Source: Nemertoderma westbladi
Lineage: Eukaryota; Animalia; Xenacoelomorpha
NCBI GenBank assembly: GCA_032718475.1
Contig: JAUCBJ010000225.1
Location: 10,952-74,951, forward strand
Reading direction: 5' to 3'
Length of the DNA: 64,000 nt
The notes beneath the pieces were generated by a model, which was not told the DNA's origin, did not search any database, and was given only the letters and a program-made list of their open reading frames with translations. Each line of letters begins with the position of its first letter. The first letter of the stretch is position 1. Positions 1 through 57,879 of this stretch are shown one piece after another. Made by a program: the position numbers and the translations under genes.

Positions 1-1054
1 ACCTGTCACAGCTTAGCCGTGATGATTCAGATTGCGACATCTAGCAGCTGGTTGCTGGCATGGAAACAGCCATTGGACGCATGGTTCTTTGTTTGGCTTG
101 AGCCAATCAGAGCGATTTTTTCTGTCGACGTGTAGATATTCAGCCGATGATACTAGGAGTGTTCAGTCTTACTGTTTTTTGTGATACCGTTTTGTTGTTG
201 CTATCTAGGCCAGGAACACCGGCTCTAGAGTCAATTCGTTTTCATACTTTAGAAGAAACATTAGTAGGCTTAAGATTATAGAGCGTATAACTGTTATCAG
301 TTCTTAACATATCATATCACATATCGGTCTTGTCACATCTTGTCATATCATATCTTAACCTACCGTCTTAATGCTGTTTACTGTTGTGTTTTGGTTGAAT
401 ATTATTTGGAGAACATATATAAAGAACCCAAATTTCCCAATTTTCTTGATACACTACAGGTTAGAGAGACGGGTTATATATAGCGATTGCGACTTATATT
501 ATTGTGGTATGTAGTGAATTTAATGCTATTTGATAAGCCCTACATGAGTCCATTGCTGTTCGCTTTATATATGATAAAATTCATTGACGGTCGGCAAATT
601 AGTGAGCAGTATTGTGTGTTACCGGTAGTGTGCATGATTGTGACTGATAACTAAGCATTTCCTAAAGAATGCGCCTCATACGTGAATCATAAGCCTTACC
701 GACTTACCGTTGTGATTAGTATAAGTCATATCTCTGTTTACCTAGATAGAGCGCCACGTCCTGAAGGAACTGTTAATATTTCCCGAAAGTGAATAATATT
801 AGTCAGAAATTAATTATTAACTATCAATCGAATAATACAATACAGTAAGCTTACACTGCAATAATAATCTAAGCCCTCAGAATCCAGTCTCCTGGGTATA
901 TCCAGCGGGTGAATGGACGCGCACTAGGCTGGCTTCTGCTAATGTTGTGTTTATTGGTATTAAATATTTGTCATCTTCTAAAGTCTATTTATAAACCAAA
1001 AGACATATAAATTTTGGCAGGTTAAACTGCTAAAGGTCTTCAAAAGCGCGTATA
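1..1054 (+). repeat. E1 5' LTR (first ~212 nt outside window)
   Basis: Near-identical to the 3' LTR; ends ...AAAAGCGCGTATA (other copies end GTACA). CCAAT motif near 101-110. Confidence 0.95.
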
Positions 1055-1065
1055 ATAACAGTTAT
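1055..1065 (+). promoter_or_regulatory. Non-canonical primer-binding site, candidate self-priming PBS (ATAACAGTTAT)
   Basis: Directly abuts the LTR end with no TGG nearby. Exact reverse complement ATAACTGTTAT at 287-297. Same arrangement in E2 (17297-17307 vs 16547-16557). Confidence 0.6.
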
Positions 1066-1121
1066 TGACTTTATTGCAGTAAGCAATAAAGTTGAAAGTA
1101 CCGGTCGGCCGGTAAACCTGA

Positions 1122-2000: not shown

Positions 2001-3290
2001 TTATGCGATTATTCGCAACATTCATGTCCCCAAGTTTATTCCTACAGTAATTGTGCTTGTTATACATACTGTTATAGTTAAATTAACCCCGGTACTACAC
2101 GGGCTGCTTGGCGTAGGAAAAGACTGGTGACTTTGTGCTTCGGTCACTCCAGCAGATGCCGTGGTTCTTTTAACTGTTCAAGTATATTTAACTACTGATT
2201 ATTTGTTGTACCAGTACTTGTACCTAATTTAGGGTTTAGTGTACAGTGCTTTCCGAAAGTAATTAGTGTGTAGTCAGTATATTTGTGTTGTAAAGTGGTT
2301 AATAGGCACGCTGGATCTGGTAGTCCGCGGTAATTAACTTCTAGGTAGGAACACTCCGTGATACATAACGTAGTACCTATAGCGATACGGTTATAGGTCG
2401 TCAGGCGGTGGTATTTTCCTATCTGGACAGTGCAATATATTTACTACTACTTATTATTTTCAAATACCGTAGTACCCTGTCCGTTGTAACAAACCGAATT
2501 CTAACCCTTTGTTAGACTGGTTTGTAGACTTCCTGTAAAATTACCCTAAAAATTCGTACGTAATATTTTTGTTGTGTTTAATTAGAGAATTAATCTCACC
2601 CGTATCGTAAGTAATTTGTAGTATTAAGTAACTTAGGTAAATTAGAATTATCAGTTTTAGTGTCCAATAAATAGCACTTCACTGAGAGCGCACAGCTTCT
2701 GTGTAATGACTTCCCCCAGAAATAATAACATTTATTTCAAATATTGAAAAAACCCATTTTAAACGGGTATATAAATATTATAAATCAACTCAAACGATTT
2801 ATAAATAGTAGGCCTGCCATACAACAACTAGGTCTCAATATCAGTTGGACTACTGCTTAAATAACGGTAATAAAGTAAGTTAAAGTAACCAAGTAACCCT
2901 AAAATATTCAGAAATTCAATTATTCTAAAATAATTGACATACCGGTATTTACCATAGGCTTATTATATTTATTTCTATAAATTTGAGCTAAAATCATACC
3001 GGTATTCTGTAATTAATTCTAGTTCATAATTATACTTATATATACTATAAGTGTACGCTGCATACCGGTATTCACGATAGGCCTATTATATATTTATATA
3101 TATTTGTGCTAAAATTATATACCGGTACTCTGTGACAAACCTAGTTACAATACTTATATATACTATAAGTGTATACCGGTATTCTAATATACTGCAATAA
3201 ATTACCGGTACTAGGCCAACGGTCATACTGAATTACTAGACTTGCTTTAACTGTAACTATAGCAGTAAGCATTCAACTGTATAGCTAAAC

Positions 3291-6200
3291 ATGTCTGACA
3301 CTCAGCAAAACCTGTCAGACAGTCTAATCGATACAACCATCTGTGACACAGATAGGAGTGTGGAGCGATTAAGAAAGGAGTTCAGCTCACCTCCTACTGA
3401 AAGAAAGGTCATCCCTCCAGTAGTAGTATCAGACCCTAAGCTAATCCAACACCGTAGGTCTATCATCGGCACTCGGGCCCAAGTCAAACGGAACCAGGAA
3501 GCAGCTGTCCCACAGCAGCAACAGCCTAGTCAAGAAACTTGTTCCCAGCGATCTGATAGCTCCAGTAGTTCGGATACTGTCGAACTGACCCCCGAACGCA
3601 GATTGCAGATGGCGGCTAAAGCCTACTCGGACCCCCTTCTCACCCTTCCTGCCGCAGTGCTAATTACTATATTGATTGCGGTGGAGGAACATCAAGCCGA
3701 TTGGGCGAGAAATAAGCGAGCAACCCAAGATAATTATGCGGGATACGCCAGGGAAGAATTGATGTCTATTGTCGAGTCACAATGGAACTTTCCCGGACCC
3801 GGACTCCCGTTAGATCTGTCCGAGGCTACTTGGGAAGATATACACAGGATGGGAGTGGCTAAAGATACTATGGATCCAGCTGTTTGGAAGAGGTCGGCAG
3901 CAGGATATGTGCAGGGATTCTTCGGCTCCTTAGAGCGATTAGAAGAACAACTGTTTCGACAACCCCAAGGACCTCAAGAGCAGGAAGAACTGCTATATCA
4001 AGTACGCGAAAGAACCCTACGCATTCGACTAATCCTATCAGCTTTTGAGGAAACTTCCAAAAGAAGACAGGACACGTCGCTGCAGGTTGCTGTCAAAACT
4101 TGGTTCCAGCGGGTAGGTCTCAAAGTACAAGAAACAGACCAGTGGAAATCCCAGTTGTCTGAGAGACTAACCTATGACGAACCAACCGATGTCACCCTTC
4201 CTCAAGTGGAAGGCGAAGAGACCGCAGAGAGACCACGAACGAGAGACGCCATCGACATTTATCTGTCCGACTATCAGCGATTCCTAGGAGACGAAGAGTT
4301 GAGGAGACGGCTGTCTGGACTTTCCCCTAATAGTGAAGGAACCCAGCGTGTGTTAGACTCAATCGATGCTGAAATGTTAGCGGCTAACCAAGCTGAGTTT
4401 GATGAAAAACTTCGCCTCACTAGAGTCCAAGAAGAACTAGTAAAGAAAAAACGGATAGAAGACCGAAAGGCAGCTGCAGTAACAGCGGCAATGGCCGAAG
4501 TGGAAGCGGAAAGAAAAGCAGCGGCGGCAGAAGCAGAAGTAGAAAGAAAAGCAGCAGAAGCAGAAAAAAAGGCAGCAAAGGCAGTGGCAGAAGCAGAACG
4601 GAGAGCCTCTGAGGAGACTACCCAACTGGAGTTAGAAAATCTGCAAGAGATGCAAGACAACATAAATAAACAGTTAACTGCTAGTCGAATGCAGATGATG
4701 AGACGATCTACTCCAAAACGCCAGGGATACACGTCATCAGAGGAAAGCGAAACCACCGATCCTGAAGGCGGCGGAAATAGATCTCGTCTAAGCAGGCGTA
4801 GAAAAACATCTCACCGCCACAAATTGCCTGATTTGCCCCCGGCGGTTAGAAGACAACTAACTAGCACAGACTTAGGTAGTACAGAACCCACAGAACAAAT
4901 TATTCAGGTCAAAAGACTCCCTACAATAGTTGATGAGCCTGAAATAATTAGGCTTGTCGTTCCCAAAGCAACTTCTGTGCTAGAGACCCCTGTACTTCCA
5001 GAGCTTAACTCTAAATTCCCTTTACATAGTACTACACTGCCTGTACCCGGTAGAACAGTCCATGAGAATATCCCTGTCCTGGAAGCTGAGAGAGAAATCA
5101 AAGATTTGTCTCCCGTCGTCCCACGTCAGCCCGCTACAATGTTGGCGACTCCCGCTTCGGCGGTCGAGTGGGTAGAAGAGGGACGGCGGGGGATGAATCT
5201 CCTGCTCGGACAGATGCAGGAGACTGTCTACCAACTTAAGGGAACAGTAAGGGAAGGTAGGGCCGAATTGCAAGAAGTGCAGCAAAGTATCGCGCTAGAA
5301 CGCGACAAATTAGTCAATATCCAAAAGGGAATACCAATACCCCCTGTAAAATTGTGTCAACCTGTTAGGTCTGAAGTAGTACATGCGCAAGGTGTGGAGC
5401 CTACATGCATCTATACTGCTAGTGAAGTAGAAACTCCTATAGCAAACCCTATTAAGGGTGATTATAGACCTGTTATTAATGATATCCCTTATAGACCTGA
5501 CAATGATCCGAGAAATTTATATAACGATAATTCGATATTAAATAACACGATGGCACAAGAAAGCTTTACGCGTCAGATGGCTAGAACAGAAGCCCGCCAA
5601 GCGGTCAAAGTGGGAGAGATCGTTAAATTCAATGGAGATGAGATGAAATGGCTACCTTTCAATGAATATTACAAAGATAGCATACAAAACTCTGTACTAT
5701 CTAACGGAGAGAAACTTAGGTTCCTCATCAAGTGATTGGAAGGACCTCCCAGGTTAATGGCGTTAAAGTTTATTGGACATCCAGAAGGATTAAGACAAGT
5801 ATGGGATACATTAAACATCAGGTATGGTAACAAGGATAACATAGCTAAGTATTTGTATGCAAAATTAGTAGCCCCCCGACACTTCCTTAGTAGCGGGATT
5901 ATAGAGTTTTCCGATGAAATTCAGGAGATCTGTAGACAATTGGACTGGTTAGGTAAGTCTCATGAATATCAGAGTTCCATGGTTATTGGAGCAGTAGTCT
6001 CTACTTTACCAAAGGGTGGAGTATGTACACGTTGGGACAAGAAAGTGTTGTACATGAATGAACAACAACGACGAAACCCTACCATGACTGATCTCATGTC
6101 CTTCTTAGATGGTGAAGTAAAACTACAACTCATCAAGCAGTCCAGAGAGAAAACATCGGAAAATAAGGTAAGTGAGAAACCCGCTTCTAGGAGAAGAGTA

Positions 6201-9200
6201 ACACCGGTGTGTTACACTGACGACGGCGAAAGCCAAGCTTCTCAAGAAGAGGACAGCGGGAAAGACATTGAGAGATCTTACTACGTTGGAAAAACCTCAA
6301 AAGATGTAAGTAAATACAAGGCTCGAAACAATGATAGGAGAGAACAGGTTGTCAAGACCCCTCCTCAGTCTCCTAACAGAATGCACCGAAGAAAACCCGA
6401 AGAAAAAACGAGAGTGCATCAAGTTACCCAAGGTAAAGTGAGTAACATAAAACCTAACTGTGCGTTGTGCGACGGGACCCACCGTTTGAGTGCGTGTGCT
6501 GAATTTCTAAAGAAATCCCTTGTAGACAGACGTGCAGTCGTATGGGACAAGCGGTTATGCTATAATTGCCTCAGACCAGGACACCAACGGCGAACCTGTT
6601 ACTCCGATATAAAGTGTGCAAAGTGTGGCGCGAAACATCACATCTTGTTACACAGTGAGTTCGAACGAGACAAACTGAGTCAGGTAAGTGAGCCCGAACT
6701 ACATGTCCAATTCAGTGATGTAAACGACACTGATCAAGAATCTGAGATGGAAGGATTCTATACTGACGAATTCTCCGACGCCAACGAATCCTGTTATCTA
6801 ATCAATACCACAGTGTATCGAGCACTTACTTATGAAAAGGACACCAACGATGAGTTTCCCCCAACTACTTTTGCCAAACAACCATCTTGGAAAGCTCCAA
6901 CTTCCAACGTAGGAATCAGAGAATTTCCTGTAGTGCAGGTAAGAGTTCACGGTCTTAACAAAAGTTACATAGTGAACGCCCTCCTTGACTCCGGCAGCAC
7001 AGGAACATTCATCGATCAAGAACTAGCCGAAGATATCTTTGCTGGACAACCCAAGTTCCGGACTAAATTGAATATGTCAGGAATTATGCAGGTTTGGAAA
7101 TCTACCCTAACGGCAGATTACTATGTAGGTGTGTTGTCCACCCCCCAGGATAAGTTAGGAGCACAAGGTATAAGGTCGGTAAAAATGGTGGCTATAAAGA
7201 ACTTCGCTACTACTCAAGCAGACCTTTATAATTGGGACGAGGATGAGAGCATCCAACATCTTAAGATACCTCGATTCCAGACAGATTATCCTGGAGTGCA
7301 AATACTCATCGGCCAAAACGCGCATGAGGCGCTCGAAACATTGGAGAAACGGCCTGCTCAACCACAACCACTGCAAACCTATGCGGTAAGAACTAGAGTA
7401 GGTTGGTACTTTACTGGCCCTTCCCGCAGGACTCTCGCAGAGAGAATGCCACAAGAACAAACATACCAAGTAAACGATTGGGAAGTGGAGAGCAGTGAGG
7501 TGGACGAACTAACTGAGGGAATACCATACTCCTCAGATAATGACGACATCTACCAACTCTTCGATGAAGAGAACACAATCGACCTACTTACAGAAACCCA
7601 AACTTGGAAAAATCAGGTGAACCTATGTCAACTGATTCGCCCATCGGAACCCATCGCTTACAATGACGAACTCAACGATGAGATAGAGCGCTACAACGCT
7701 AGAACTCGGGACGAACTAGCCGTACGATTCTTTACTCAGGAACTGGTAGAGCCCAATTCATATGATAAGGCTCTATCGATAGAAGAAGAAAGAGCCAAGC
7801 AAATCCAGGAAACAACTACACGTTTTTTAAAGGATCAAGGTAGATATGAAATCGGCCTACCATTTCGAAAACGAGAACCTAGATTTATAAATAACAGACC
7901 CTTGGCAGAGAAAAGAATCGCTCAATTACATCGACGCCTTACAGCTAATGCTTCAGCGAAAGAAATGTACCAAATTCAGCTGAAGAAATTTGTAACAAAG
8001 GGATACGCGGAGCGAGTACCGGAAGGAACACCAGTGACTGAGAGAACGTATTACTTAACACATCATTACGTTCCCAAACCCGGTAAACCACACGAAGTAC
8101 GAGTCGTATTCGATGGCTCCGCCCTATATATGGGCGGAGACTCAATTCCGAGTTGTTACCAGGACCCAACTTACTCCAATCTTTGTTGGGAATACTTTTA
8201 AGATTAAGACAATATTCCATCGCGTTCGCCTCAGACATAGAGGGAATGTTCTTACAAGTCAAGGCGCTGGATAGAGATAGAGACAGCCTGAGATTTCTGT
8301 GGTGGCCTGAAGGAGACCTCAATCAGAAACCGGTAGAGTACTGGATGACCATCCAGGCTTTTGGAATCATATCAAGCCCTTCCAACGCCTGCTCCGTGGT
8401 GCGAACCACTGCGAATGACAACCGAGACTCCTTCTCAAAAGAAGTGATAGACAACATAAAACGCAATATATACATGGACGACAATTTAAGGTCCCTTCCA
8501 TCAGTAGAAGAAGCCATAGCTGTCGCGAAAGGAATGGTAGATTGTTTGAAAAGAGGTGGATTTCGACTGACGAAATTCACTAGCAACTCCCGTGAGTTTC
8601 TGGAAGCCATACCGGTAGAAGACCGAGGAACGAAAGACCTAGACTTAATAAAGGACGATCTTCCTGAAACCAAGACGCTTGGCTTGAAGTGGGACACTGA
8701 AAGAGACATCCTGTTTTTTCAGTTAAAACAGCGAGATAATCCAGTTCGGACCAAACGGATTTGTTTAAGTATCCTGAGCACTTATTTCGACCCATTGGGA
8801 TTTATTAGCCCAGTTATATTGATTGCTCGGAGTTTAGTACAACAAATGTGGCTTGAAAACCACTCATGGGACGATCCGCTTAAGGGTGAACTGTTAAAGA
8901 AATGGATGAAATGGGAAGATTCTCTACCTGCCATCGAGAACTTTATAATTTCCCGTACCTATTTTGGCCATGTTCTTCCTACGTATTCCTATCAACTCCA
9001 TGTGTTTGGAGACGCCAGCGACATGGGAATAGGTATAGTAGCATATCTGCGAGTCGAAACTCCGGATGGGATCAAAGTCGCCTTGGTTACCTCTAAGGCA
9101 TTGATTAACAACAAGTTAAAGGTTCCTCGAGCGGAGTTAAAGGCAGCTTTATACGCTACAGCCATCGGACGGAACGTAACAGAACAAATCGACTATCCAC

Positions 9201-11355
9201 TGGAGAAAACTGTTTATTGGACCGACGCTTTACTCGTGTTGGAGTATCTAACCAATGAAGTCTGTCAGTTCAGCGTTTTTGTTACTAACAGAGTAGCTAT
9301 TATTCTTAGTCGCACAAAGATAGATCAATGGAGACATTGCCCTGGTACGATTAATCCAGCCGATATCGCCTCCAGGGGAGCAACTCCACAGGAACTGATA
9401 GATACTCCAGATTGGTTGGGTGGACCCGACTTCCTGAGCAAGGAAGAGGATGAATGGCCTCCTCACCTTACTACGGCAGAGATTAGACAAGCCAAGGGAG
9501 CGGAGACAGTCAAACCTAAAACCCGGGCGAGTAAATCGAAGTTATTTAAACCGACTATCGATCTATCTGTATTACATGCTTCCGGGAATGATGCTTCGGA
9601 TCCACAATCCCTCAACACAAAAAAGTCTGTTGTGGAAATTAGAGATAGAGATTGGAAATCTGGAATACCAGACGTCTCGCAAGGAATCTCACCCAGGCTG
9701 CAGAGAGCAATGCATCATTACAGTTCCTGGAATCGGCTCTGTAAAGCCGTCACATATTTAAGACGATGTTTTCATCATCACACTCTAGGACGAAGACCAC
9801 TAGTGATAACGCTCCATTGACATCTGCACAAGTTCATGTTATTAAAAATTTACCCAAATATAAGACATCTGACCGTTTTCTAAAGGAGAAAATTAGTCAC
9901 CAGGAGCATGAAGAAACCAATAAGCAGATACTGAGACTCCTGCAATGCTATGAGGATTCCGAAAAGTATTTCCTGTTGTTGAGAAATCCGCAGATGCGCT
10001 TAAGGGATCGATTCTCGAGCACAATGATAGATGGGTTAATACGTGTTGGAGGAAGACTCACCAATGCGCCCTTATCCTTTGACACCAAATTCCCCATACT
10101 TATTAGAAATCTTGAAGTACAAATCAAGATGATTGTAGATGTTCACAGTAAACTTTATCATGCTGGTAGAGAACGAATTCTTAGCGAAATTCGAACTCGC
10201 TATTATTTTGATAAACCCCGTAGAGCTCTGAACCAAGTTCTTAGGAACTGCATACCCTGTAGGAAAGCATTCAGTAGGCCTTTAACACAGCGAGAGGCAG
10301 AATTACCTAGGGAACGAGTAAGCTTCTATGAACCACCTTTTACTAATACTGGTGTAGATTTATTTGGCCCTATTGAAGTATATCGTGCTAGGACTATAGT
10401 CAAGAGATGGTGTGTCATCTTCGTGTGCATGACTTGTAGAGCCATCCATCTCGATATGGTGAACGATCTATCTACCAACAGCTTCGTCTTAAGTTTACGA
10501 CGACAGATCGCTCGCTTCGGGACGAGTAATACCATGAGATCGGATAAGGGAACGAACTTCATTGGTGCCAACAACGAAATACAGGCTTACGTGAAGGACT
10601 GGAACCAAAGACAGGTGGACGACCAGCTAAGGATAACAGCGTCTAGCTGGACCTTCAACGCCGCCGACGCCCCTTGGTGGGGAGGAAGTTGGGAGAGATT
10701 AATTCGAAGTGTCAAAACCGCATTTCACTTTATAGTGCCATGCCGCGCGTATCTCACCGACGAACTTTTGCGGACGTTAATGGAGGAAATCGCTGCCTAT
10801 CTCAACGAGAGACCGCTTATGCCAGTCTCATCGAGTCCCGATTCCCTGGAAGCGCTAACACCCGCGCACTTCCTACTGAAGAAACCTGTAGCCATGCTCC
10901 CACGATCGGAGATTGCCGACGGAGACGAATACTGCCGTCGAACTAGGCAACTTATGCAGTTGCTATCCCGTCGTTTCGCTGACCATTTCGAGAAACATTA
11001 TCTGCCCACGCTACAACTTCGAACTAAGTGGTTTGCGCAGCAAGAAAACGTCAGCGCCGGAGATATGGTGCTTATTGTAGATCCAGACCTCCCACGTAAA
11101 CGGTGGCAGACAGGTCGTATCATCGAGACCCACATCTCAGATGATGGTTTAGTACGCTCGGTAGAACTCATCGTCATGCGGCGTAACTTCAAGAAGCCAG
11201 GCATAATCTTTGAGATGCAACAACTCAATCGCCCAGTTGGTCGTTTATGTTTACTGGAAAGAGACAGAGAACTCTCCGGAAACTATGGAAGGCAAGACAC
11301 TCTTCCCACGACCACCTCCCTAATTCCTCAAACATCTAGGGACTCCCCCACGTGA
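3291..11355 (+). pseudogene. gag-pol: BEL/Pao gag-pol polyprotein (Gag, 3x Cys/His knuckle, aspartic protease, RT, RNase H, integrase) with one nonsense codon and two frameshifts
   Basis: Gag KFNGDEMKWLPF...EKLRFL. BEL-type triple knuckle CALCDGTHRLSAC / CYNCLRPGHQRRTC / CAKCGAKHHILLH. Protease LLDSGST. RT RVVFDGS, DIEGMFLQV, YMDD. RNase H LHVFGDAS, PRAEL, NPADIASRG. Integrase H..H..CIPC, GVDLFGP, SDKGTNF, WWGGSWERL. TGA at 5733-5735 is TGC in E2. Frame changes near 8130 and 9766. Confidence 0.95.
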
Positions 11356-12175: not shown

Positions 12176-12984
12176 AATTATTAACATCAAATAATAAAAT
12201 TGACGGGAATAAATTCAAATTCATATTTTAAATGAATTTCATAAATTGTCATTTTGTACAATTTATAACATTCCCAAAATTCCCTTAATTAATAGATCAT
12301 GGGAGCGGAGATTCATCCTATTGAGTGTATTAGAGTGCGAGAATCTCCGACATATAGTCAATAGCCAATAAAATTAATAAAATCATGTATAAAGAGGATA
12401 TTGACAATTAAAGAATTACTATTAAATAGCATTCCAGATCTGTATGCATGAGAATTACCCTAATTCTACCGCTAGCTTTCCATAATGTCACCATAGCAAC
12501 ACCCACGCTAGAATTAGAAGCAAGTTAAAAGAACAATAGAAAGCTTGTCACATTGCATAGCATAGAGAATACATAGCACACTGTTAGTATCCAAGGATAC
12601 ACAGTAATAACGTGACATTCTGGAAGGCACTGACTAACGGACAAATGACCTGTATGTGTACAATTGGTGACAGTTGTATGGAATTTGTGCGTTTATAGGT
12701 GAATGTTACTGCTAAAGTATGTTTACAGTAGCTAGTCGCAATTGTAAAAATAGCCCAACTCTCCTATAGAAAGAACCTAAGTGGATCCAAGCCTTTGGGA
12801 CGGACAGTGGAGTGACTTGTGCCGGTTATCGTTGTCGTGCTGTTGCTACATGTTGGCGTAAACACCGCGACGACGGTACATCGGCGCTGAGAATCCCACT
12901 GTCCGGGGGCAAAGAGAAGTAGGCAGCGACGCCCGCTCGCCTAAATACAAACTTATTTGATATTAATAAACTCAGATAGCAGAT

Positions 12985-15900
12985 ATGACGGAGTTGATAG
13001 AAGATGATCTTGGTATTAGGGAGCGATATATCCTACCTTTACAAGCATTTGTGGATAGCTTAATACGCGGTGAAGCTGATCCAACCATTACGGAGGACGA
13101 TGGTCGTTATATCGAACCGCCGATGTCCCAAGAGCAACTTGCGCGTGAATTGGACTATCGAAAATTCACCACTCGCTATACGAATCGTAATGGTACGTAT
13201 ATGGACTTCTTAACGACCGGCCATCCTATCGATTTACATGATACGGACGATGTAGATACAGAGAGGGAAATGGTTCTATTTAAATATCATACCCAGCGGA
13301 GTCGTAACGATAAACCGAGAATAGATCACGAAAATTCTATTCGTAATCGACTGGAAAGAGAAAACGTTGAAGAACCGGATAAACGCATCGACTTCAACGA
13401 ATACCTAGAATTTTTGAGAGAAACCTATCTCAACATCGCTAGTCAGCAGAACTTAGAGACTCGATATCCTCAAGGTATACATCACGACCCTGTGGTAGAA
13501 CTCAAACGGCTCTATTTCACTATGATGTATCTTACCGCCGATCGTCCACTACCTGTTATCCCGGATAGTTTTGAACAAATGGAAGAATACTGCAAAACTG
13601 GAGAACGATCACCCGCGTTTCCTCTACAGGACGTACGTCTTTGATATTATTGTGACGAATGCCCTAGACCCAACCAACAAACTGAAAGACATAAACATCC
13701 GCGGAGACGTTGCGCTAAACATAGTTTTACGCGTTACACTTACGGGAGTTTCGAGCGAAACCTGTTCGACATACCACCCACGATCGCTCGTCTTAAACGA
13801 TCACTGAATAAACCCATGATCAGAGTTCCGGAATACTCGGTCAGGCCTCCTCATTCCCTAGTGAGACCTCAAACTCTTGATCCTAACAGTATCACTGATC
13901 CTCCCGAGCTATATTCCCTGTTCAAAGACTTAGTGTTACCCGAACAATTAATCGGTGGTACTCCGGTAGTGGGTTCGTTAGACATCTGCCCATCCTACTT
14001 AGCCAGATTGGGACGCGGGCAGCTAATATCGCCCTTTGATCCTTACAATCGTCCAGGATTAAACCCGATGCAACCTGCCACGGAAGTCGAGGAGAGCGTT
14101 ATAAGAAACGCTTTAGACGCCATTCGACAGAAAATCGGAAAGGGAACACAAGATTGTTTAGAGAAACGTAAATTACAACAACAAGTCCAATCGGTGAAGG
14201 AGTTAGCATTGCCACAATTCGATAGAGAAATCCATACCCTCGAGGAAGACATCGAGCTTGGACGCACGTATTCTCTACAAGAATTTTTAGATGAACGCTT
14301 ACAGAGACAAGCAGAAGAAATTCTACTCGAGGAGAAACACACGAAACTGGAAGAGAGAGAAGACGCCGCTTTAGCCCAACCGGAAGCTCAAATCCTCATG
14401 ACGGATCTCTACTCTAAAACCGTTCGTCATCCCTCGATGATTCCACATTTCGGGGACAAGCTCTTCGCGACGATACAACCTCAACCGGTTGATATCAGTA
14501 CAGGATCGCAAAATCTTATCGCTGACGCCCCTATGTTACAGCGTCCACCGATCGAGGCCGCTCGTGTTGACGGTATACTTGTTGAACCTCCGGACAATCG
14601 AGCGGATCTTGTCCGTCGCATGGTACACGATGTCAACATACGCGCTAGACCTTTACAGAACTCGTTTTATGGGATTAAAGACCACCCTTATTACGTTAAT
14701 CTGACTCAATATTATATGGTAAAACCAGAAGACCCGACGCATAATTTAAAGTTTCTACCACTAATAAATCCTCTAGACATTGTCGAACTCGAACAATTGC
14801 AGAAACATCTGGATCAGTTAGTAAAGGTAAACTCATTTAGAAAACCGTATAACATTTCTCGAATCGAGAAAGATATAGAACCTCCTTATAATCTCGATGG
14901 ATTTATTAAAACTCGATTAGTCCATTGGAATCTAGATGTATTATTTGAAGAAGAGAAAATACAAAGATATGGAAATGTGGAGACGTATACCACTCGGCAT
15001 ATGAAGTATAGTGATCTCCATGACGCTAACCAATGCGCCACCTTGTGGCATCCAGTAGGGATGACCCTAGAGAACGCCACCAAGGAGTGGAATGAAACTC
15101 TTAATGTTATTGAGATGTATGGAGTTGTCACCTACGATAATGAAGGTAGCGTTCCGGTCGGAGAGCTAGGAACTACGCGCATGATCCACATACGCGGATT
15201 AGCTGGTTCTACCCACGTGTTTACGCGAGCGTGTTCCGACGTGATTGATTATTCTTTTGAAACTCTCACCGAAACACAAAAGAATCTCCGACATGGACAA
15301 TTCGAACTCGCGCAGCGTTACGTCATTGACACCGAACGCAAACCGGCCATGGGCATCGATGGATCGATGTTACCCCAGCCCGTACTCGAAATGTTGTTCA
15401 ACGAAAGAATCCTTAAAATCGGCTCAGCTGTTTATGGAGATCTCCAAAACGACTTTCGGAATATGGAGGACATTCCATACCCTTTCGTTGATACTCAGCT
15501 GATTGCTCCCTGGGCAGAAGGTCGAGGTTTCTTCCGCACCATGTATGCTAATACGTCTAGCAACATTACAAAGGTGCAACGAACTTCCATCGGACATCTT
15601 GCCTTTCAGGAATACGGATGGAATTTCAAAGTCGGAAATCCCATTAACTATCAACAAGTATACGGAGACCATTATTCTCGATTATACTTTGATGGACCAT
15701 TGACCGCACCTGGCGCCATGTATAGCTTCATGAGTGTTCCACTCCGTCCCTCCTTAGCTATATACACGATCTTTGAAAACACCGCACTTGCCGGTTGGCT
15801 AGCCGATGTGTGCAGTCGTACTATACGCGCCCATCCATTAATACTTGGGACCAAACTCGCTAAGCTAGATGAACATAATAAATTCATCCGTTTCGAATGT

Positions 15901-16046
15901 TTCCGGCGATTTTTAACCCCGTTCCGCAACGTGGATAGCCAATTTAAAGACCGCGCTTTGACCAAGCTCAGCCTAAGAGACTCAGCTGCAGAGAAGTTGG
16001 ATAGCGCTGGATTCGCCATTTTCCAAGAGATTTGTATATCGAACTT
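12985..16046 (+). pseudogene. E1 extra ORF2, 5' part: large protein with a DnaQ-like (DEDDy; RNase D/WRN/EXD/Mut-7 type) 3'-5' exonuclease domain
   Basis: ORFs 12985..13644 and 13816.. are in the same frame with a single TGA (13642-13644) and no other stop between them. Exo motifs VVTYDNEG (D 15136, E 15142), LPQPVLEMLFNERILKIGSAVYGD (D 15439), FVDTQ, SIGHLA...GWNFK, PLRPSLAIYTIFE (Y 15763, E 15775). Confidence 0.75.
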
Positions 16047-17296
16047 TGTAAAAGCTTCTGTGGGATATAACTGGCCCCTTTGCTTCGCAATCCAGTTTCC
16101 CCCCAGGCGCTGGAATACTCTAAAAAGGTTCTCTAACTGTATATATATTCCCCTCGCCCGCAAGGTACCATTACAGGTGTTTTGACGGACATAAAAGTCA
16201 TTCTGCTATATACGTGTTTTGGCGGACATGGTAAGGCAAAAAACCTGCAATGCACCAACTACCTTTCACAGCTTAGCCGTGATGATTCATATTACGACAT
16301 CTAACAGCTGGTTGCTGACATGGAAACAGCCATTGGACGCATGGTTCTTTGTTTGGCTTGAGCCAATCAGAGCGATTTTTCCTGTCGACGTGTAGCTTTT
16401 CGGCCGATCATAAGGAGAGTGTTCAGTCTTACTGTTTTTACTTGATACTTTGTTGTTATTGCTGTCTAAGCCAGAAACACCGGCTCTAGAGTTAGTTCTT
16501 TTCATACTTTGGAAGAAACATTAGTAGGCTTAAGATTATAGAGCGTATAACTGTTATCGGTCCATATCAGTGCATATCACTGTACATATCGGTTCATATC
16601 ATATCTTAACCTACCGTCTTAATAGTTTGCTGTTGTTTGGTTGAATATTATTTGGAGAACATTTATAAAGAACCCAAATTTCCCAATTTTCTTGATACAC
16701 TACAGGTTAGAGAGGCGGGTTATATATATAGCGATTGCGACTTATATTATTGTGGTGTGTATTGAATTTAATGCTATTTGATAAGCCCTACATGAGTCCG
16801 TGGCTATTCTCTTTATATATGATAAAATTCATTGACGGTAGGCAAATTAGTGAGCAGTGTTGTGTGTTACCGGTAGTGTGCATGATTGTGGCTGATAACT
16901 AAGCATTTCCTAAAGAATGCACCTCATACGTGAATCATAAGCCTTACCGACTTACCGTTGTGATTAGTATAAGTCATATCTCTGTTTACTTAGATAGAGC
17001 GCCACGTCCTAAAGGAACTGTTAATATTTCCCGAAAGTGAATAATATTAGTCAGAAATTATTTATTAACGATCAATCGAATAATACAGTAGGCTTCACTG
17101 CAATAATAATCTAAGACCTCAGAATCCAGTCTCCCGGGAATATCCAGCGGGTGAATGGACGCGCACTAGGCTGGCTTCTGCTAATGTTGTGTTTATTGGT
17201 ATTAAATATTTGTCATCTTCTAAAGTATATTGATAAACCAAAAGACATATAAATTTTGGCAGGTTAAACTGCTAAAGGTCTTCAAAAGCGCGTACA
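16047..17296 (+). repeat. E2 5' LTR (1250 bp)
   Basis: TGTAAAAGC...GCGCGTACA; ~4 differences from 26916-28165. Confidence 0.97.
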
Positions 17297-19561
17297 ATAA
17301 CAGTTATTGACTTTATTGCAGTAAGCAATAAAGTTGAAAGTACCGATCGACCGGTAAACCTGAACCGGTACTTCTGTAGGTCAGTAGGCCCAACTGCCAG
17401 AACCGGTACTGCTGTAGGTCCGTAGGTCCAACTGCCAGAACCGGCACTTCTGTAGGTCAGTAGGCCCAACTGTCCTAACCGGTACTTCCAGTATAAGTAC
17501 ATTAGTATTATTCGATTTTGATTATAGTATACCGGTAGGTCTTAGTATTTAATCAGGGAACGGCCGCCCTGGTTTTTACTGAGATTTTACTTATTTCTGT
17601 CGGTTTTATTTCCTAGTAAGTAAATATTGAGCTGGAGACGTGTAAGTCTGCTCAGATTGTTCAGATAACTGTAGGCCAGACTGTTGTCGGATTGTTGTTG
17701 GGTTTGGAGAGATTACGGCGTGTGTGGAGTTTGTCCGATAGAGTGCCAGTTAGTAAGTTGGGGCAACTTGAGTGTAAGGTCAACCCCCTCTTAAAGAATA
17801 AGTCGTACTACCGTGTTAGAACGCATACTAACTAACAATTTTGGAATCTGCACATACTGTAGTTTATTTAGGCTTGACAGTATTCTGCCAGCGTTTTGGC
17901 TTGTGTTTGTTTGTGTGGTCTGTCCAGGTACCGTAATAGTTATTACTCAGATATTTTGTAGGCTGGATTGTTGTCTAGCTATTATTAGGTCTGAAGAGAT
18001 TACTGCGTGTGTAGAGTTTGTCTGATAAAGTGCCAGTTAGTAAGTTGGGGCAGTCATAACTGTAAGGTCAATCCCCTCTTAAAGAATAAGTCGTACTACC
18101 GTGTTAGAACGCATACTAACTAACCGTTTTGGAATCTGCACATACAGTGGTTTATTTAGGCTTGGTGGTAGTCTGCCAGCGTTTGGTTTGTATTTTGTTT
18201 GAGTATTCTGTACGGGTAGCGTAATATTTATTATTCAGAGTTTATGCGATTATTCGCAACATTCATGTCCCCAAGTTTATTCCTACAGTAATTGTGTTTG
18301 TTATACATACCGTTATAGTTAAATTAACCCCGGTACTACACGGGCTGCTTGGCGTAGGTAAAGACTGGTGACTTTGTGCTTCGGTCACTCCAGCAGATGC
18401 CGTGGTTCTTTTAACTGTTCAAGTATATTTAACTGCTGATTATTTGTTATACCAGTACTTGTACCTAATTTAGGGTTTAGTGTACAGTGCTTTCCGAAGT
18501 AATTAGTGTGTAGGCAGTATATTTGTGTTGTAAAGTGGTTAATAGGCACGCTGGATCTGGTAGTCCGCGGTAATTAACTTCTAGGTAGGAACAATCCGTG
18601 ATACATAACATAGTACCTATAGCGATACGGTTATAGGTCGTCAGGCGGTGGTATTTTCCTATCTGGACAACGCAGTGTATTTACTACTACTTATTATTTT
18701 CAAATACCGTAGTACCCTGTCCGTTGTAATAACCAGGATTCTAACCCTTTGTTAGGCTGGTTTGTAGACTTCCTGTAAAATTACCCTAAAAATTTCGTAC
18801 GTAATATTTTTGTTGTGTTTAATTAGAGATTTAATCTCACCCGTATCGTAAGTAATTTGTAGTATTAAGTAACTTAGGTAAATTAGAATTATCTGTTTTA
18901 GTGTCCAATAAATAGCACTTCACTGAGAGCGCACAGCTTCTGTGTAGTGACTCCCCCAGAAATAATAACATTTATTTCAAATATTGACAAAAACCCTTTT
19001 TAAACGGGTATATATATATTATAAATCAACTCAAACGATTTATAAATAGTAGGCCTGTCATACAACAACTAGGTCTCCATATCAGTTGGACTACTGCTTA
19101 AATAACGGTAATAAAGTAAGTTAAAGTAACCAAGTAACCCTAAAATATTCAGAAATTCAATTATTCTAAAATAATTGACATACCGGTATTTACCATAGGC
19201 TTATTAGATTTATTTCTATAAATTTGAGCTGAAATCATACCGGTACTCTGTAATTAATTCTAGTCCAAAATTATACTGATATACTATAAGTGTAAGCTGC
19301 ATACCGGTATTCACGATAGGCCTATTATATATTTATATATATTTGTGCTAAAATTATATACCGGTACTCTGTGACAAATCTAGTCTGTAATAATACTTAT
19401 ATATATATTATAAGCATACCGGTATTCTAATATATTATATATATATCACGCTACACTGAGTAGCAGTATCGGTAATTAATTATTAGGCTAACAGTGATAC
19501 TGAATTACTAGACTTGCTTTAACTGTAATATAGCAGTAGACATTCAACTGTACAATCAAAC

Positions 19562-22500
19562 ATGGCTGACACAAGGCAAACTCTGTCAGATAGTCTCCTA
19601 GAAACAACAGCCTGTTTCTCAGATCAAAGTGTAGAGAATCCCAGACCGAGGTCTGAAACCCCTCATACTGTAAGAAGGGCAACCCCTGCAGTGGTTGTGT
19701 CAGAACCTAGGTTGGTAGAAAAGTTTTCGCAATTTGCGAAGTTAGTGAAGCGCCGTTGGTCTGTCATAGGCACTCGGGCCCAAGTCAAGCGGGATCAAGA
19801 AGAAGCTATAAAACAGCAGCAACCTCCTAGCCAAGAACCTGGTTCTCAGCGGCCCGATAGCTCCAGTAGTTCGGATACTGTTGAGCGGACGCCAGAACGC
19901 GGAGCGAAGATGGCGGATACGGTTTATGATGAGCGGCCAACCTATGAAGAATCAACCGACGCCACTTCTTCTCAAGTGGAAAGTGAGGTGGAAAGCGAAG
20001 TGGAAAGTGAGGTGGAAAGCGAAGTGGAAAGTGAGGTGGAAAGCGAAGTGGAAAGCGAGGTGGAAAGCGAAGTGGAAAGCGAATTAACAGCAGCAGAGAA
20101 GCCGCGAACTAGAGACGCCATTGACATCTATCTGTCAGACTATCAGCGATTCATAGGAGACGAAGAGTTGAGGAGACGACTGTCTGGACTTCGCCCTAAT
20201 AGTGAAGGAACCAAGCTTGTGTTGGACGCAATCGATGCGGAAATGTTAGCTGCAAACCAAGCTGAATTTGATGAAAAACTCCGCCTCGTTAGAGTCCAAG
20301 AAGAACAAGTAAAGAAAAAACTGATAGAGGACCGAAAGGCAGCAGCAGTAGCAGCGGCTACGGCAGAAGCCGAAGCAGAAATACAAAGAAAGGCAGCGGC
20401 GGCAGAAGCAAAGGCGGCCATGGCAGAAGCAGAAGCAAGGGCGAAAAAGGCAGTAGCAGAAGCAGAACGAAGAGCGTCTGAGCAGACTACCCAACTGGAG
20501 TTGGAGAAGCTGCAAGAGACGCAAGACAACATAAATAAACAGTTAACTGCTAGTCACATGCAAATGATGAGAAAATCTACTCCCAAACGCCAGGGCTATA
20601 CTTCATCGGAGGAAAGCGAAACCACCGATCCTGAAGGCGGAGGAAATAGATCTCGTCTAAGCAGGCATAGAAAAACATCTTACCGTCACAAATTGCCTGA
20701 TTTGCCCCCAGCTGTTAAAAGACAACTAACTAGCACAGACTTAGGTAGTGCAGAACCCATAGAACAATTTATCCAGGTCAAAAGACTCCCTACTATAGTC
20801 GATGAACCTGAAATAATTAGGCCTGTCGTTCCCAAAGTCACTCCTGTGCTAGAGACCCCTGCACTTCCAGAGCTTAACTCTAAATTCCCTTTACATAGTA
20901 CTACACTGCCTGTACCCGGTGGAACAGTCCATGCAAATACCCCTGTCCTGAGCATTGAGAGAGGAATCAAAGATTTGTCTCCCGTCGTCCCGCGTCAACC
21001 CGCTACAATGTTGGCGACTCCCGCTTCGGCGGTTGAGTGGGTAGAAGAGGGACGGCGGGGGATGAATCTCCTGCTAGGACAGATGCAGGAGACTGTCCAC
21101 CAACTTAAGGGAACAGTGAGGGAAGGTAGAGCAGAGTTGCAAGAAGTGCAGCAAAGTATCGCACTAGAACGCGACAAATTAGTCAATATCCAAAAGGGCA
21201 TACCAATACCCCCTGTAACATTGTGTCAACCTGCTAGGTCTGAAGTATTACATGCGCAAGGTGTGGAGCCTACACGCATCTATACTGCTAGTGAAGTAGA
21301 AACTCCTATAGCAAACCCTATTAAGGGTGATTATAGACCTGTTATTAATGATATTCCCTATAGACCTGATAATGATCCGAGAAATTTATATACCGATAAT
21401 TCGATATTAAATAACACGATGGCCCAAGAAAGCTTTACGCGTCAGATGGCTAGAACAGAAGCCCGCCAAGCGGTCAAAGTGGGAGAGATCGTCAAATTCA
21501 ATGGAGATGAGATGAAATGGTTACCTTTCAACGAATATTACAAAGATAGCATACAGAACTCTGTACTATCTAACGGAGAGAAACTTAGATTCCTCATCAA
21601 GTGCTTGGAAGGACCTCCCAAGTTAATGGCGTTAAAGTTTATTGGACATCCAGATGGATTAAGACAAGTTTGGGATACATTAAACATCAGGTATGGTAAC
21701 AAGGATAACATAGCTAAGTATTTGTATGCAAAATTAGTAGCCCCCCGACACTTCCTTAGTAGCGGGATTATAGAGTTTTCCGATGAAATTCAAGAGATCT
21801 GTAGACAATTGGACTGGTTAGGTAAGTCTCATGAATATCAGAGTTCCATGGTTATTGCAGCAGTAGTATCTACTTTACCTAAGGGTGGAGTATGTACACG
21901 CTGGGACAAGAAAGTGTTGTACATGAATGAACAACAACGACGAAGCCCTACCATGACTGATCTCATGTCCTTCTTAGATAGCGAAGTAAAATTACAACTT
22001 ATAAAGCAGTCCAGAGAGAAAACATCGGAAAATAAGGTAAGTGAGAAACCCGTTTCTAGGAGAAGGATAATACCAGTGTGTTATACTGACGACGGCGAAA
22101 GCCAAGCTTCTCAAGAAGAGGACAGCGGGAAAGACACAGCAAAATCTTACTATGACAACAAGACCTATAAAGACGTAAGTAAATACAAGTCTCGAACCAG
22201 TGACAGGAGAGAACAGATAACAATAACTCCTCCTACGTCTCCTAAGAGAATTCACGGAAGAAAGCCCGAAGAAAGAACGAGGGTGCATAATGTTACCCAA
22301 GGTAAGGTGAGTAACATCAAAACAAAATGTGCGCTGTGCGACGGGCCCCACCGTTTGAGTGCGTGTGCTGAATTTCTAAAGAAATCCCTTGTAGACAGAC
22401 GTACAGTCCTGTGGAATAAGCGGTTATGCTATAATTGCCTCAGATCAGGACACCAACGGCGAACCTGTTACTCCGACGTAAAGTGTGCAAAGTGTGGCGC

Positions 22501-23761
22501 GAAACATCACATCTTGTTACACAGTGAGTTCGAACGAAACAACCAGAGTCAGGTAAGTGAGCCCGAACTACATGTCCAATTCAGTGATGTAAATGACACT
22601 GATCAAGAATCTGAGATGGAAGGATTCTATACTGACGAATTCTCCGACGTCAACGAATCCTGTTACCTAATCAATACCGCGGTGTATCGAGCACTTACGC
22701 ATGAAAAGGACACCGACAATGAGTTCCCCCCAACTACCTTTGACAGACAACCATCTTGGAAACCTCCAACTTCCAACGTAGGAATCAGAGAATTTCCTGT
22801 AGTGCAGGTAAGAGTTCACGGTCCCAACAAAAGTTACATAGTGAACGCCCTCCTTGACTCCGGCAGCACAGGAACATTCATCGATCAAGAACTAGCCGAA
22901 GATATCTTTGCTGGACAACCCAAATTCCAAACTAAGTTGAATATGTCCGGAATTATACAGGTTTGGAAATCTACCATAACGGCAGATTACTATGTAGGTG
23001 CGTTGTCCACCCCCCAGGATAAATTAGGAGCACAAAGTATAAGGTCAGTAAAAATGGTGGCTATAAAGAACTTCGCTACTACCCAAGCAGACCTTTATAA
23101 TTGGGACGAGGATGAGAGCATCCAACATCTTAAGATACCTCGATTCCAGACAGATTATCCTGGAGTGCAAATACTCATCGGCCAAAACGCGCATGAGGCG
23201 CTCGAGACATTGGAGAAACGACCTGCTCAACCGCAGCCACTACAAACCTATGCGGTAAGAACTAGAGTAGGTTGGTACTTCACTGGCCCTTCCCGTAGAA
23301 CTCTCAAAGAGAGACTACCTCAACAACAGGTATACCAAGTAAAGGAATGGGAAGTGGAGAGCAGTGATGTGGACGATCCAACTGAGGGAACACCATACTC
23401 CTCAGCTAATGACGATATTAACTCCAATGTAGATCAATGGAGACATTGCCTTGGGACGATTAATCCAGCCGACATCGCTTCCAGAGGAGCAACTCCTCAA
23501 GAACTAATAGATACTCCAGGCTGGTTAGGTGGATCCGACTTCTTAAGTAAAGAAGAAGAAGAATGGCCTCCTCATCTTACCACGGCGGAGTTTAGACAGG
23601 CCAAGGGAGCGGAGAAAGTAACACAACAACTCAATCGCCCAGCTAGTCGTTTATGTTTACTGGAAAGAGACCGAAAACTGTCCGGAAACTATGGAAGGCA
23701 AGATACTCTTCCTACGACCACTTCCCTAATCCGACAAATATCTAGGGACTCCATAACGTAA
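19562..23761 (+). CDS. gag: E2 Gag-protease ORF (1399 aa) fused in frame to short RNase H and integrase C-terminal remnants
   Basis: Uninterrupted ORF. After LLDSGST it jumps from ...ANDDINSN to VDQWRHCLGTINPADIASRG, then from QAKGAEKVT to QQLNRPASRLCLLE. Confidence 0.92.
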   Translation: MADTRQTLSDSLLETTACFSDQSVENPRPRSETPHTVRRATPAVVVSEPRLVEKFSQFAKLVKRRWSVIGTRAQVKRDQEEAIKQQQPPSQEPGSQRPDSSSSSDTVERTPERGAKMADTVYDERPTYEESTDATSSQVESEVESEVESEVESEVESEVESEVESEVESEVESELTAAEKPRTRDAIDIYLSDYQRFIGDEELRRRLSGLRPNSEGTKLVLDAIDAEMLAANQAEFDEKLRLVRVQEEQVKKKLIEDRKAAAVAAATAEAEAEIQRKAAAAEAKAAMAEAEARAKKAVAEAERRASEQTTQLELEKLQETQDNINKQLTASHMQMMRKSTPKRQGYTSSEESETTDPEGGGNRSRLSRHRKTSYRHKLPDLPPAVKRQLTSTDLGSAEPIEQFIQVKRLPTIVDEPEIIRPVVPKVTPVLETPALPELNSKFPLHSTTLPVPGGTVHANTPVLSIERGIKDLSPVVPRQPATMLATPASAVEWVEEGRRGMNLLLGQMQETVHQLKGTVREGRAELQEVQQSIALERDKLVNIQKGIPIPPVTLCQPARSEVLHAQGVEPTRIYTASEVETPIANPIKGDYRPVINDIPYRPDNDPRNLYTDNSILNNTMAQESFTRQMARTEARQAVKVGEIVKFNGDEMKWLPFNEYYKDSIQNSVLSNGEKLRFLIKCLEGPPKLMALKFIGHPDGLRQVWDTLNIRYGNKDNIAKYLYAKLVAPRHFLSSGIIEFSDEIQEICRQLDWLGKSHEYQSSMVIAAVVSTLPKGGVCTRWDKKVLYMNEQQRRSPTMTDLMSFLDSEVKLQLIKQSREKTSENKVSEKPVSRRRIIPVCYTDDGESQASQEEDSGKDTAKSYYDNKTYKDVSKYKSRTSDRREQITITPPTSPKRIHGRKPEERTRVHNVTQGKVSNIKTKCALCDGPHRLSACAEFLKKSLVDRRTVLWNKRLCYNCLRSGHQRRTCYSDVKCAKCGAKHHILLHSEFERNNQSQVSEPELHVQFSDVNDTDQESEMEGFYTDEFSDVNESCYLINTAVYRALTHEKDTDNEFPPTTFDRQPSWKPPTSNVGIREFPVVQVRVHGPNKSYIVNALLDSGSTGTFIDQELAEDIFAGQPKFQTKLNMSGIIQVWKSTITADYYVGALSTPQDKLGAQSIRSVKMVAIKNFATTQADLYNWDEDESIQHLKIPRFQTDYPGVQILIGQNAHEALETLEKRPAQPQPLQTYAVRTRVGWYFTGPSRRTLKERLPQQQVYQVKEWEVESSDVDDPTEGTPYSSANDDINSNVDQWRHCLGTINPADIASRGATPQELIDTPGWLGGSDFLSKEEEEWPPHLTTAEFRQAKGAEKVTQQLNRPASRLCLLERDRKLSGNYGRQDTLPTTTSLIRQISRDSIT
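19976..20083 (+). repeat. 12-bp coding tandem repeat, (VESE)x9, in E2 Gag
   Basis: GTGGAAAG(T/C)GA(G/A) repeated nine times; a single VEGE at the equivalent position in E1. Confidence 0.9.
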
Positions 23762-25388
23762 TACATATGGAGTGGGCGTGTGACTATATCATTTTATATT
23801 TGTTTTATTTTATATTTATGTATGTATTATTATGTAATTTTATTATAATCGTTTTCTTTAATTTTATTTAGTAGAATGTTCTTTTAGTGATTATTTAGTA
23901 GATTAGTGCAATATATTAGTGTTTATTACGTACGTAATTACTTATAATATATATTTAGTGCGATGGCGAGAAATAATTATTTTTTCTCTTTCCTTACTGT
24001 CCGTATCATATTATAAATACGTGACTACAGTAAGATGAAATGTCCGTACTTATTAAAGTACAATAAAGCCACTGCTATATTCAAGTATTATTGGTAGGCA
24101 GAGTATTAGGAATGCAAAGTTCAGATCCTCGTGTCTCGGCTAAACCAAGCTCTGGGTAGACCTTGGAAACGACTTGCCTCTTCACACTGACATTGCTTCG
24201 TGCGATATTGCTCTCATACCATATATAATAATACATATAGTAGCGTGATGTCCCTCTAACAGTAGCGTAAAACGCAAATAAATCTGTTAAACCTTTTGAC
24301 CATCTGTAATTCTAGTCGATTAAGATATCGCGGCACCCACCGATATACTTGAAAGACAAATTCTAGAATCAGTGGTTAACGTCCCCAGACAAGTTCTGGA
24401 ATAAATCGGTGCCCATCTTAAATATTAATTTAATATTTATTAAAATCTGTAAAATTCAGATCCGTTAACAATTCTAGTCGATTAAGATATCGTAGCACTT
24501 ACCGATACTCTTAAAAGACAAATTTCATAGAATTAAGGATCCTATGTCCCCAGACCTGCTCTGGAATCAAATTGTGTCAATTTTAACATCAAATAATAAA
24601 ATTCATGGGAATAAATTTAAATTCATATTTTAAATGAATTTCATAAATTGTCGTTTTATGCAATTTATAACATCCCCAAAATTCCATTAATTAATAGATC
24701 ATGGGAGCGGAGATTCATCCTATTGAGTGCATTAGAGTGCGAGAATCTCCAACATATAGTCAATAGCCGATAAAATTAATAAAATCATATATAAAGAGGA
24801 TATTGACAATTAAAGAATTATTATTAAATAGCATCCCAGATCTGTATGCATGAGAATTACTCTAATTCTACCGCTAGCTTTCCATAATGTCACCATAGCA
24901 ACACCCACGCTAGAATTAGAAGCAAGTTAAGAGAACAATAGAAAGCTTGTCACATTGCATAGCATAGAGAATACATAGCACACTGTTAGTATCCAAGGAT
25001 ACACAGTAATAACGTGACATTCTGGAAGGCACTGACTAACGGACAAATGGCCTGTATGTGTACAATTGGTGACAGTTGTGTGGAATTTGTGCGTTTATAG
25101 GTGAATGTTACTGCTAAGGTGTGTTTACAGTAGCTAGTCGCAATTGTGAAAGTAGCCCAACTCTCCTATAGAAAGAACCTAAAGTGGATTCAAGCCTTTG
25201 GGACGGACAGTGGAGTGACTTGTGTCGGTTATCGTTGTCGTACTGTTGCTACATGTTGGCGTAAACACCGCGACAACGGTACATCGGCGCTGAGGATCCC
25301 ACTGTCCGTGGGCAAAGAGAGGTAGGCAGCGACGTCCGCTCGCCTAAACATAAACTCATTTCGATATTAACAAACTCAGATAGCAGAT

Positions 25389-25787
25389 ATGACGGAGTTG
25401 ATAGAAGATGATCTTGGTATCAGGGAGCGATATACTCTACCTTTACAAGCATTTGTGAATAGCTTGATACGCGGTGAAACCGATCCAACCATTACGGAGG
25501 ACGATGGTCGTTATATCGAACCGCCGACGTCCCAAGAGCAACTTACGCGTGAATTGGACTATCGAAAATTCACCGCTCGCTATACGCATTGTAATAATAC
25601 GTATATGGACCTCCTAACTACTGGCCATCCTATCGATTTACATGATACGGACGATGTAGACACCAAAAGGGAAATGGTTCTATTTAAATATCATACCCAG
25701 CGGCGTCGTAACGATAAACCGAGAATAGATCACGAAAATTCTATTCGTAACAGACTGGGAAGACGAACCAATATGCCTAGAATCTGA
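25389..25787 (+). CDS. E2 internally deleted ORF2 (N-terminal 123 aa plus the last 9 aa)
   Basis: Matches E1 12985-13353, then jumps to E1 ~28277 (GRRTNMxRI*). Confidence 0.75.
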   Translation: MTELIEDDLGIRERYTLPLQAFVNSLIRGETDPTITEDDGRYIEPPTSQEQLTRELDYRKFTARYTHCNNTYMDLLTTGHPIDLHDTDDVDTKREMVLFKYHTQRRRNDKPRIDHENSIRNRLGRRTNMPRI

Positions 25788-25943
25788 GGAGATTCAGCCT
25801 ATCGCGCTCGGAACAGCGACAACGATTACATCCTAGAATGGTATCAAGGTCCACAGTGTCTCACTGCGTACGATTATCGCCATGCCAACTATGTTTCTCG
25901 GCAACGTTGTCGGTTATGCGCATCGAGAGACCATGTTACGCCC

Positions 25944-26837: not shown

Positions 26838-26915
26838 CTGTTTAGAGTATTTACGTATATTAGAAACTGTGATTTTTGTATATTTATAGACTCAAATCCC
26901 ATTTTCTGGGAGCGG

Positions 26916-57618: not shown

Positions 57619-57620
57619 CA

Positions 57621-57878: not shown

Positions 57879-57879
57879 A

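Follow-up and report, generated by a model that had tools for sequence, protein, structure and literature searches.

How a retrotransposon of the BEL/Pao type may start its reverse transcription where no tRNA-binding site follows its 5' long terminal repeat (LTR) is the question raised by a stretch of 64,000 nucleotides from Nemertoderma westbladi (GenBank assembly GCA_032718475.1, contig JAUCBJ010000225.1, positions 10,952 to 74,951 of the forward strand), referred to here as the window. A preliminary description of this stretch had proposed independent self-priming in a BEL/Pao lineage, after the manner of the Schizosaccharomyces element Tf1, with the transcript's 11 initial bases serving as the primer.

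Self-comparison of the window reveals four related insertions of the BEL/Pao type, designated E1 to E4. E1 reaches from beyond the left edge of the window to position 30701, its 5' LTR (1..1054, plus strand, the first ~212 bases lying outside the window) and 3' LTR (29436..30701, plus strand) being 99.4% identical. E2, an internally deleted copy (16047..28165, plus strand) flanked by the target-site duplication (TSD) AACTT, is nested in E1, and a rearranged copy, E3 (50308..58793, minus strand), with the TSD ACTTC, lies within E4 (49680..59600, minus strand, TSD GATAC), which is a solo LTR from a subfamily ~75% identical and is split by E3 and by a second insertion; the copies have thus been inserted into their own kin at both places (16047-30701 and 49680-59600). 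The 5' LTR of E3 is broken by an insertion of ~260 bases (57620-57880, minus strand), next to which the leader is inverted; it carries what we take to be a B-box-like motif and is perhaps a tRNA-derived SINE. Inside E4, an insertion at 58860-59250, which has a tail of short repeats and a TSD of 9 bases, is probably a LINE fragment. Elsewhere, the window contains two frames for non-LTR reverse transcriptases (33142-34425 and 36495-39362), one of them with an AP-type endonuclease, as well as tandem repeat arrays of assorted unit lengths (40165-41037, 42721-43241, 44469-46611, 48667-48944, 59663-60180 and 61221-61959).

Concerning the proteins, the gag-pol region of E1 (3285..11355, plus strand) is broken into four open frames, which cover DUF1759, three zinc knuckles, protease, reverse transcriptase, the Pao RNase H (Peptidase_A17), integrase and DUF5641. 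Since these frames match DUF1759, Peptidase_A17, Integrase_H2C2 and DUF5641 in the domain search, E1 is assigned to BEL/Pao, in agreement with a gag bearing the triple Cys-His box, the order PR-RT-RH-IN, LTRs of the TG...CA form, a polypurine tract and TSDs of five bases (those of E2, E3 and E4, the left end of E1 being outside the window). The spacing of the protease and integrase motifs, ALLDSGS-X102-LIG and D(61)D(49)E, fits the Sinbad/Sailor lineage, the corresponding motifs given for Sinbad in the accessible part of its description being ALLDSGS-X98-LIG and D(62)D(49)E (PMC554778); the third zinc finger is not of the Suzu type. The closest proteins are 35-46% identical to those of E1 and, where named, come mostly from cnidarians, echinoderms, fish, molluscs and other marine animals, no named Sinbad reference being among the matches. 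E1 thus shares with the Belpaoviridae and with Sinbad/Sailor the domain set, the protease and integrase spacing and the marine-animal relatives. In a quick tree it forms a long branch of unsure placement, with no starred group and at most 44% identity, and its relatives are therefore not close.

As the preliminary description had stated, BEL/Pao elements are normally described with tRNA primer sites, and the ICTV profile of the Belpaoviridae specifies tRNA priming at an 18-base site (PMC8742986). E1 and its relatives differ from that profile in having no such site, and E1 differs also in its long LTR, its 2.2-kb leader and an extra open reading frame. E1 has no TGG and thus no site that would pair with the 3' end of a tRNA; this trait is, nevertheless, treated here as a descriptive one, membership of the family resting on the proteins. 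The leader contains internal duplications at 1117-1246, 1419-1998 and 2938-3173, with units of 38, ~290 and ~120 bases, respectively. The extra frame is large and precedes the 3' LTR; its first part (12970..16046, plus strand) is interrupted by E2 and it continues from 28172 to 29357. One part of it is similar to clusters of 3'-5' exonucleases (Atlas score 0.90, to be taken as a lead only) and has one distant homologue (E 2.3e-06), and its final part shows zinc-knuckle-like motifs. An envelope gene is ruled out, as the frame has no membrane span and its highest hydropathy is 1.14.

The position of a primer-binding site, directly 3' of the E1 5' LTR (1055..1065, plus strand), is occupied by ATAACAGTTAT, which recurs at 17297 (17297-17307), so that it immediately follows both 5' LTR ends of the window, those of E1 and E2. 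The LTR end is indeed fixed, as had been stated, by the TSDs of E2 (AACTT) and E3 (ACTTC), and no TGG for a tRNA CCA end occurs in the first 40 bases past it. The predicted self-primer ATAACTGTTAT is found at 287 (287..297, plus strand), 16547, 27416 and 29934 (29934-29944 in the E1 3' LTR), i.e. in the four LTRs of E1 and E2, and bases 1055-1065 are its exact reverse complement. Among 20,000 LTRs simulated with a first-order Markov model, an exact complement occurred at offset 0 in 29 and at any offset from 0 to 5 in 76, or in 158 when direct matches were counted too. The caveat that the word is AT-rich and quasi-palindromic also holds: it is an interrupted palindrome, hence a 10-of-11 direct repeat as well, and for this reason the match, which exceeds chance, is yet thin evidence when taken alone. 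For the post-LTR site, 287-297 is the best partner across the entire LTR. Its distance to the LTR end is 757 bases, compared with 30-365 in 26 relatives. The match agrees with the rule by which self-priming is predicted, namely a complement to the LTR of the same element that is at least 10 bases long and begins 0-5 bases past the LTR, and the site fits the helix length and offset seen in the clade of relatives. No tRNA gene was found by ARAGORN within the 64-kb window, and an Rfam search of positions 1-3300 gave six matches, all far below threshold and none covering the post-LTR site. Among the 40 variant rows in a listing that does not extend to 100 others, none falls within 287-297 or 1054-1106; no weight is given to this. 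A CATATC-rich tract of variable length (296-351) starts directly 3' of the 11-mer, and five listed joints begin at 296-299.

Folding is of little help. The duplex 287-297/1055-1065 is weak (-10.1 kcal/mol), with a probability of 0-0.29 in whole-RNA folding. The perfect 10-bp leader hairpin described earlier (1068..1092, plus strand) is present (-12.3 kcal/mol), and a predicted 7-bp hairpin of U5 (1014..1033, plus strand) is conserved in sequence in E4; the pairing between U5 and the leader that had also been suggested (-10.5) is disfavoured, losing to these two local hairpins (-9.0 and -12.3). In the predicted fold the post-LTR site is single-stranded between them. A possible 8-bp extension of the pairing (278..285, plus strand, with 1066-1074 and two single bulges) is no better than at the sites of other families, 12 of 25 being equal or better. 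A second 10-base complement between LTR and leader joins 856-865 with the hairpin arm 1071-1080 (-12.6 kcal/mol), 9 of its 10 bases being kept in E4. An intron at 602-1020, which would raise the predicted pairing to 0.99, was rejected as evidence, arbitrary deletions having a like effect (0.77-0.92 for 5 of 10 starts, and up to 0.98 when slid), and so was a spliced primer in the window family, no consensus donor giving a good match.

The E3 variant, with G at position 3, is found at 51089 and 58305 on the minus strand and keeps the pairing through a G-U, as had been noted; it does not amount to covariation, because foreign DNA interrupts the E3 5' LTR at 57880, its own post-LTR site is lost and a comparison is possible with the site of E1/E2 only. 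In E4 the orthologous motif (59265-59275) has 3 of the 11 bases changed and fails to pair with the site of E1/E2 (-2.2), a difference that could reflect either covariation or drift.

The strong evidence comes from relatives of E1. An alignment of 28 reverse transcriptase proteins yielded 80 loci from metagenomes, the best ones among 505 confirmed and coming from 19 of the 64 parts of the collection, to which 18 loci from genome contigs were added, 98 in total; in the metagenome contigs, a search with the U5 end as a DNA pattern matched nothing, and two scans of viral contigs found no relatives. A wide table was compiled from 39 of the 98 loci and one control, the other 58 being redundant or without a recognisable LTR end. 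The elements L082-L095 lie inside records that carry the titles of bacterial genomes, in all likelihood owing to host contamination, and L073 and L074 represent one element in head-to-tail tandem copies that share single LTRs.

In the eight loci that were the first to show both ends of the LTR, no TGG follows the LTR, and each contains a partial complement of its own post-LTR site, often starting right after a splice-acceptor-like AG. When one GT-AG intron was allowed, these eight and the window paired over 10-15 bases with their own LTR, compared with 9.5 for the best of 72 cross-pairings (permutation, 1 in 362,880), the list of donors having been drawn up after the partial complements were seen. 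With LTR ends fixed independently by the two LTRs of an element, all 13 rows (12 loci and the window) pair over 10-15 bases with their own LTR, and only 3 of 156 cross-pairings reach 10 bases, all between close kin; it should be noted that these rows correspond to approximately ten families besides the window, L005/L090 and L085/L087 being close and the end of L090 approximate. Nine of the 13 are predicted to be spliced, three loci and the window being unsplit, so that for 9 of the 12 loci the match exists only after a GT-AG intron is removed from the LTR. In the whole table, no TGG is seen in any of the 40 rows (39 loci and the window), and own pairing of at least 10 bases occurs in 29 of them, the window included, although 27 of the 39 LTR ends were picked by eye after the pattern had been seen and are not independent (16 pass, 11 fall short of 10 bases). 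The control L095, a BEL element of 29% identity, has a TGG four bases past its LTR and no self-match. A blind scan, run on the 48 loci whose 5' region was usable, gave at least 11 bases in 17 of them, compared with 0/48 pol stretches and 2/48 reverse complements, most of the misses being without part of the LTR or having a mis-set region.

The two partners also change together. Two double-sided changes separate L085 from L087, which are 86% alike, and one separates L059 from L043; the covariation of the two 11-mers, named beforehand as a test, is seen as compensatory changes between related families and not as a within-host comparison. The helix has a length of 11 in 17 of 26 rows (the 29 passing rows less L075, L089 and L090), with offsets of 0-5, in agreement with the published screen for self-primers (PMC6317226). 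In the same 26 rows, pairing of the flank upstream of the helix is stronger with the row's own leader (mean -9.4 kcal/mol) than with those of others (-6.6 kcal/mol), a result reached in 0 of 100,000 permutations, kinship being ignored; the window's own upstream flank is unremarkable in this respect. Since the pairing of the relatives continues upstream of the main helix, the primer is suggested to be longer than the 11-mer. The pairing pattern at the level of the clade is strong, the priming mechanism being what we infer from it.

Concerning the spliced relatives, moving one splice site by one base reduces the match from 11-15 to 5-9 bases in all eight cases tested; a shift of both sites preserves it only if the sequence of the junction stays the same. 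Both LTRs contain the donor in 5/5 relatives checked, and a poly(A) signal lies 3' of the primer inside the LTR in 21/26. In the quick tree the unsplit families occur at dispersed places, L036 being sister to the spliced L022 with a support of 98, which would suit repeated loss of the intron; the window family would most simply be an intron-less form that has lost its LTR intron. On balance, the clade, a large one of BEL/Pao elements from aquatic animals, seems rather likely to have a primer that is split by an LTR intron and assembled by the host spliceosome, only the spliced 5' end priming and the unspliced 3' LTR transmitting the intron, with window-like families arising by intron loss in the course of copying.

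Among the signals for transcription, a CCAAT box (103..107, plus strand) is conserved in E1-E4, and ATTAAA (959..964, plus strand) is the sole poly(A) signal of the AATAAA/ATTAAA type in the LTRs of E1-E3. TTAGTA (261..266, plus strand), presumably initiator-like, is one candidate start, located 24 bases before the 11-mer and not kept in E4; initiator-like motifs precede the helix in 10 of the 26 relatives' rows, the background being 24%. A start exactly at 287, as in Tf1, is unsupported, nothing placing it there, and the TATA-like motifs at ~415 and ~475 stand as possible signals for a downstream start, albeit ones absent from the solo LTR E4.

From these sequence comparisons, it is probable that the element primes reverse transcription with its own LTR RNA, 287-297 annealing to 1055-1065, and not with a tRNA. 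Transcription would start in the 5' LTR upstream of 287, and the 11-mer would anneal to the site left exposed by the two hairpins, both sequences being present and the pairing predicted. By analogy with Tf1, RNase H would then cut on the 3' side of the duplex; from the 3' OH so freed, located at the LTR end or close to it, reverse transcriptase would copy U5-R and jump to the 3' LTR. In most relatives splicing would have to come first, the primer of the window family being ready-made. In retroviral replication the primer site is re-copied from the primer in every cycle, which here would keep both partners matched; for the same reason, an antisense exon-exon junction at the LTR boundary would be expected if the spliced RNA is the primer. 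The self-priming put forward for this lineage is well supported by the own-LTR pairing of related families, and its Tf1-style details are not. The assignment of 287-297 as the primer of the window family is less sure than the result for the clade, because of its distance from the LTR end, the uninformative folding and the long branch of E1.

In line with this, it might be supposed that the clade self-primes and that 287-297 is a chance palindrome, for example the DNA site of a dimeric factor, the real primer being elsewhere or imperfectly paired. Besides being AT-rich and palindromic, the segment is at an unusually large distance from the LTR end and is changed in E4, and GTTA, which would pair with four bases of the site, comes directly after two acceptor-like sites, before 459 and 1021. 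Such a chance match has, however, a probability of only 0.4-0.8%, the length and offset of the 11-mer match the clade, and junctions with consensus-like donors reach at best -7.6 (E1), -8.4 (E2) and -11.3 (E3) against -15.2 unspliced, so that this reading appears unlikely.

Distinctly unlikely is a primer made by the element and acting in trans, i.e. a short LTR transcript, running from the start to the poly(A) signal and spliced in the relatives, which would be packaged, cut and used on a separate genomic RNA. The donor kept in both LTRs (5/5) and the poly(A) signal after the primer (21/26) make short RNAs possible, and these would explain the survival of the intron through copying; efficient cap-proximal but not 3'-end splicing would, in our view, keep the intron too, and Tf1, the tested model, primes in cis according to the accessible part of PMC7175516. 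The family being described as tRNA-primed (PMC8742986), and half-tRNA primers being reported for Copia lineages in the available text of PMC6317226, a host RNA (tRNA fragment or snRNA) or a protein could also be invoked, with the LTR pairing serving as a structural switch for packaging or translation. This must be considered very unlikely, given that the site varies from family to family, tracking each family's own LTR, at the same 0-5 offset as the control's TGG, and that no Rfam match above threshold exists in 1-3300, nor any over the site. Priming by the element's own LTR RNA is accordingly retained here as the probable reading.

Unusual primers as such have precedents. A nematode BEL element is reported to encode its own tRNA-like primer, and some Gypsy elements to be primed by U2 snRNA, both of which differ from the case of E1. 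A close likeness is that to Tf1, Tf2, Tj1 and the Tf1/sushi group, which have, in the accessible parts of the reports, no tRNA site and ~11 LTR-adjacent bases complementary to their own LTR transcript (PMC7175516, PMC4600332, PMC5341516); their Pol is, however, of the Ty3/gypsy (chromovirus) type, whereas the E1 domains are those of BEL/Pao and most relatives of E1 need a splice, and the cleavage of the primer has been demonstrated for Tf1, that of E1 being drawn from the analogy. Self-priming has also been predicted for the plant Ty1/copia TAR lineage (Houba, Osr-1) where a complement of 10 bases or more begins 0-5 bases past the LTR, a rule that applies equally to E1; TAR elements belong to Copia, and the available text mentions no intron-split primer (PMC6317226). 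A screen of that type, as far as described there, would miss spliced primers. The 'conserved hairpin site' of the GalEa Copia elements and biv-TRIM resemble E1 in lacking a conventional site and in the hairpin after the LTR, no LTR-derived partner being proposed in the part of the source consulted (PMC6934838). The BEL/Pao clade surveys PMC3118150 and PMC6238403 contain neither 'primer' nor 'PBS' in the main text available, and the accessible parts of PMC3601003 and PMC4558846 hold nothing bearing on BEL/Pao self-priming. Neither self-priming in BEL/Pao nor a spliced primer is reported among the papers listed in a search that covered sources other than subscription journals, Repbase and GyDB, and as far as it reaches, the self-pairing pattern of the BEL/Pao clade is unpublished.

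If true, BEL/Pao would become the third LTR superfamily with self-priming, and the description of the Belpaoviridae would need correcting. It would also be explained why scans for tRNA sites and for plain complements fail to find a primer site in such elements. A primer built by splicing would make their replication dependent on the splicing of the host, and would pose the puzzle of how an intron within a terminal repeat survives reverse transcription.
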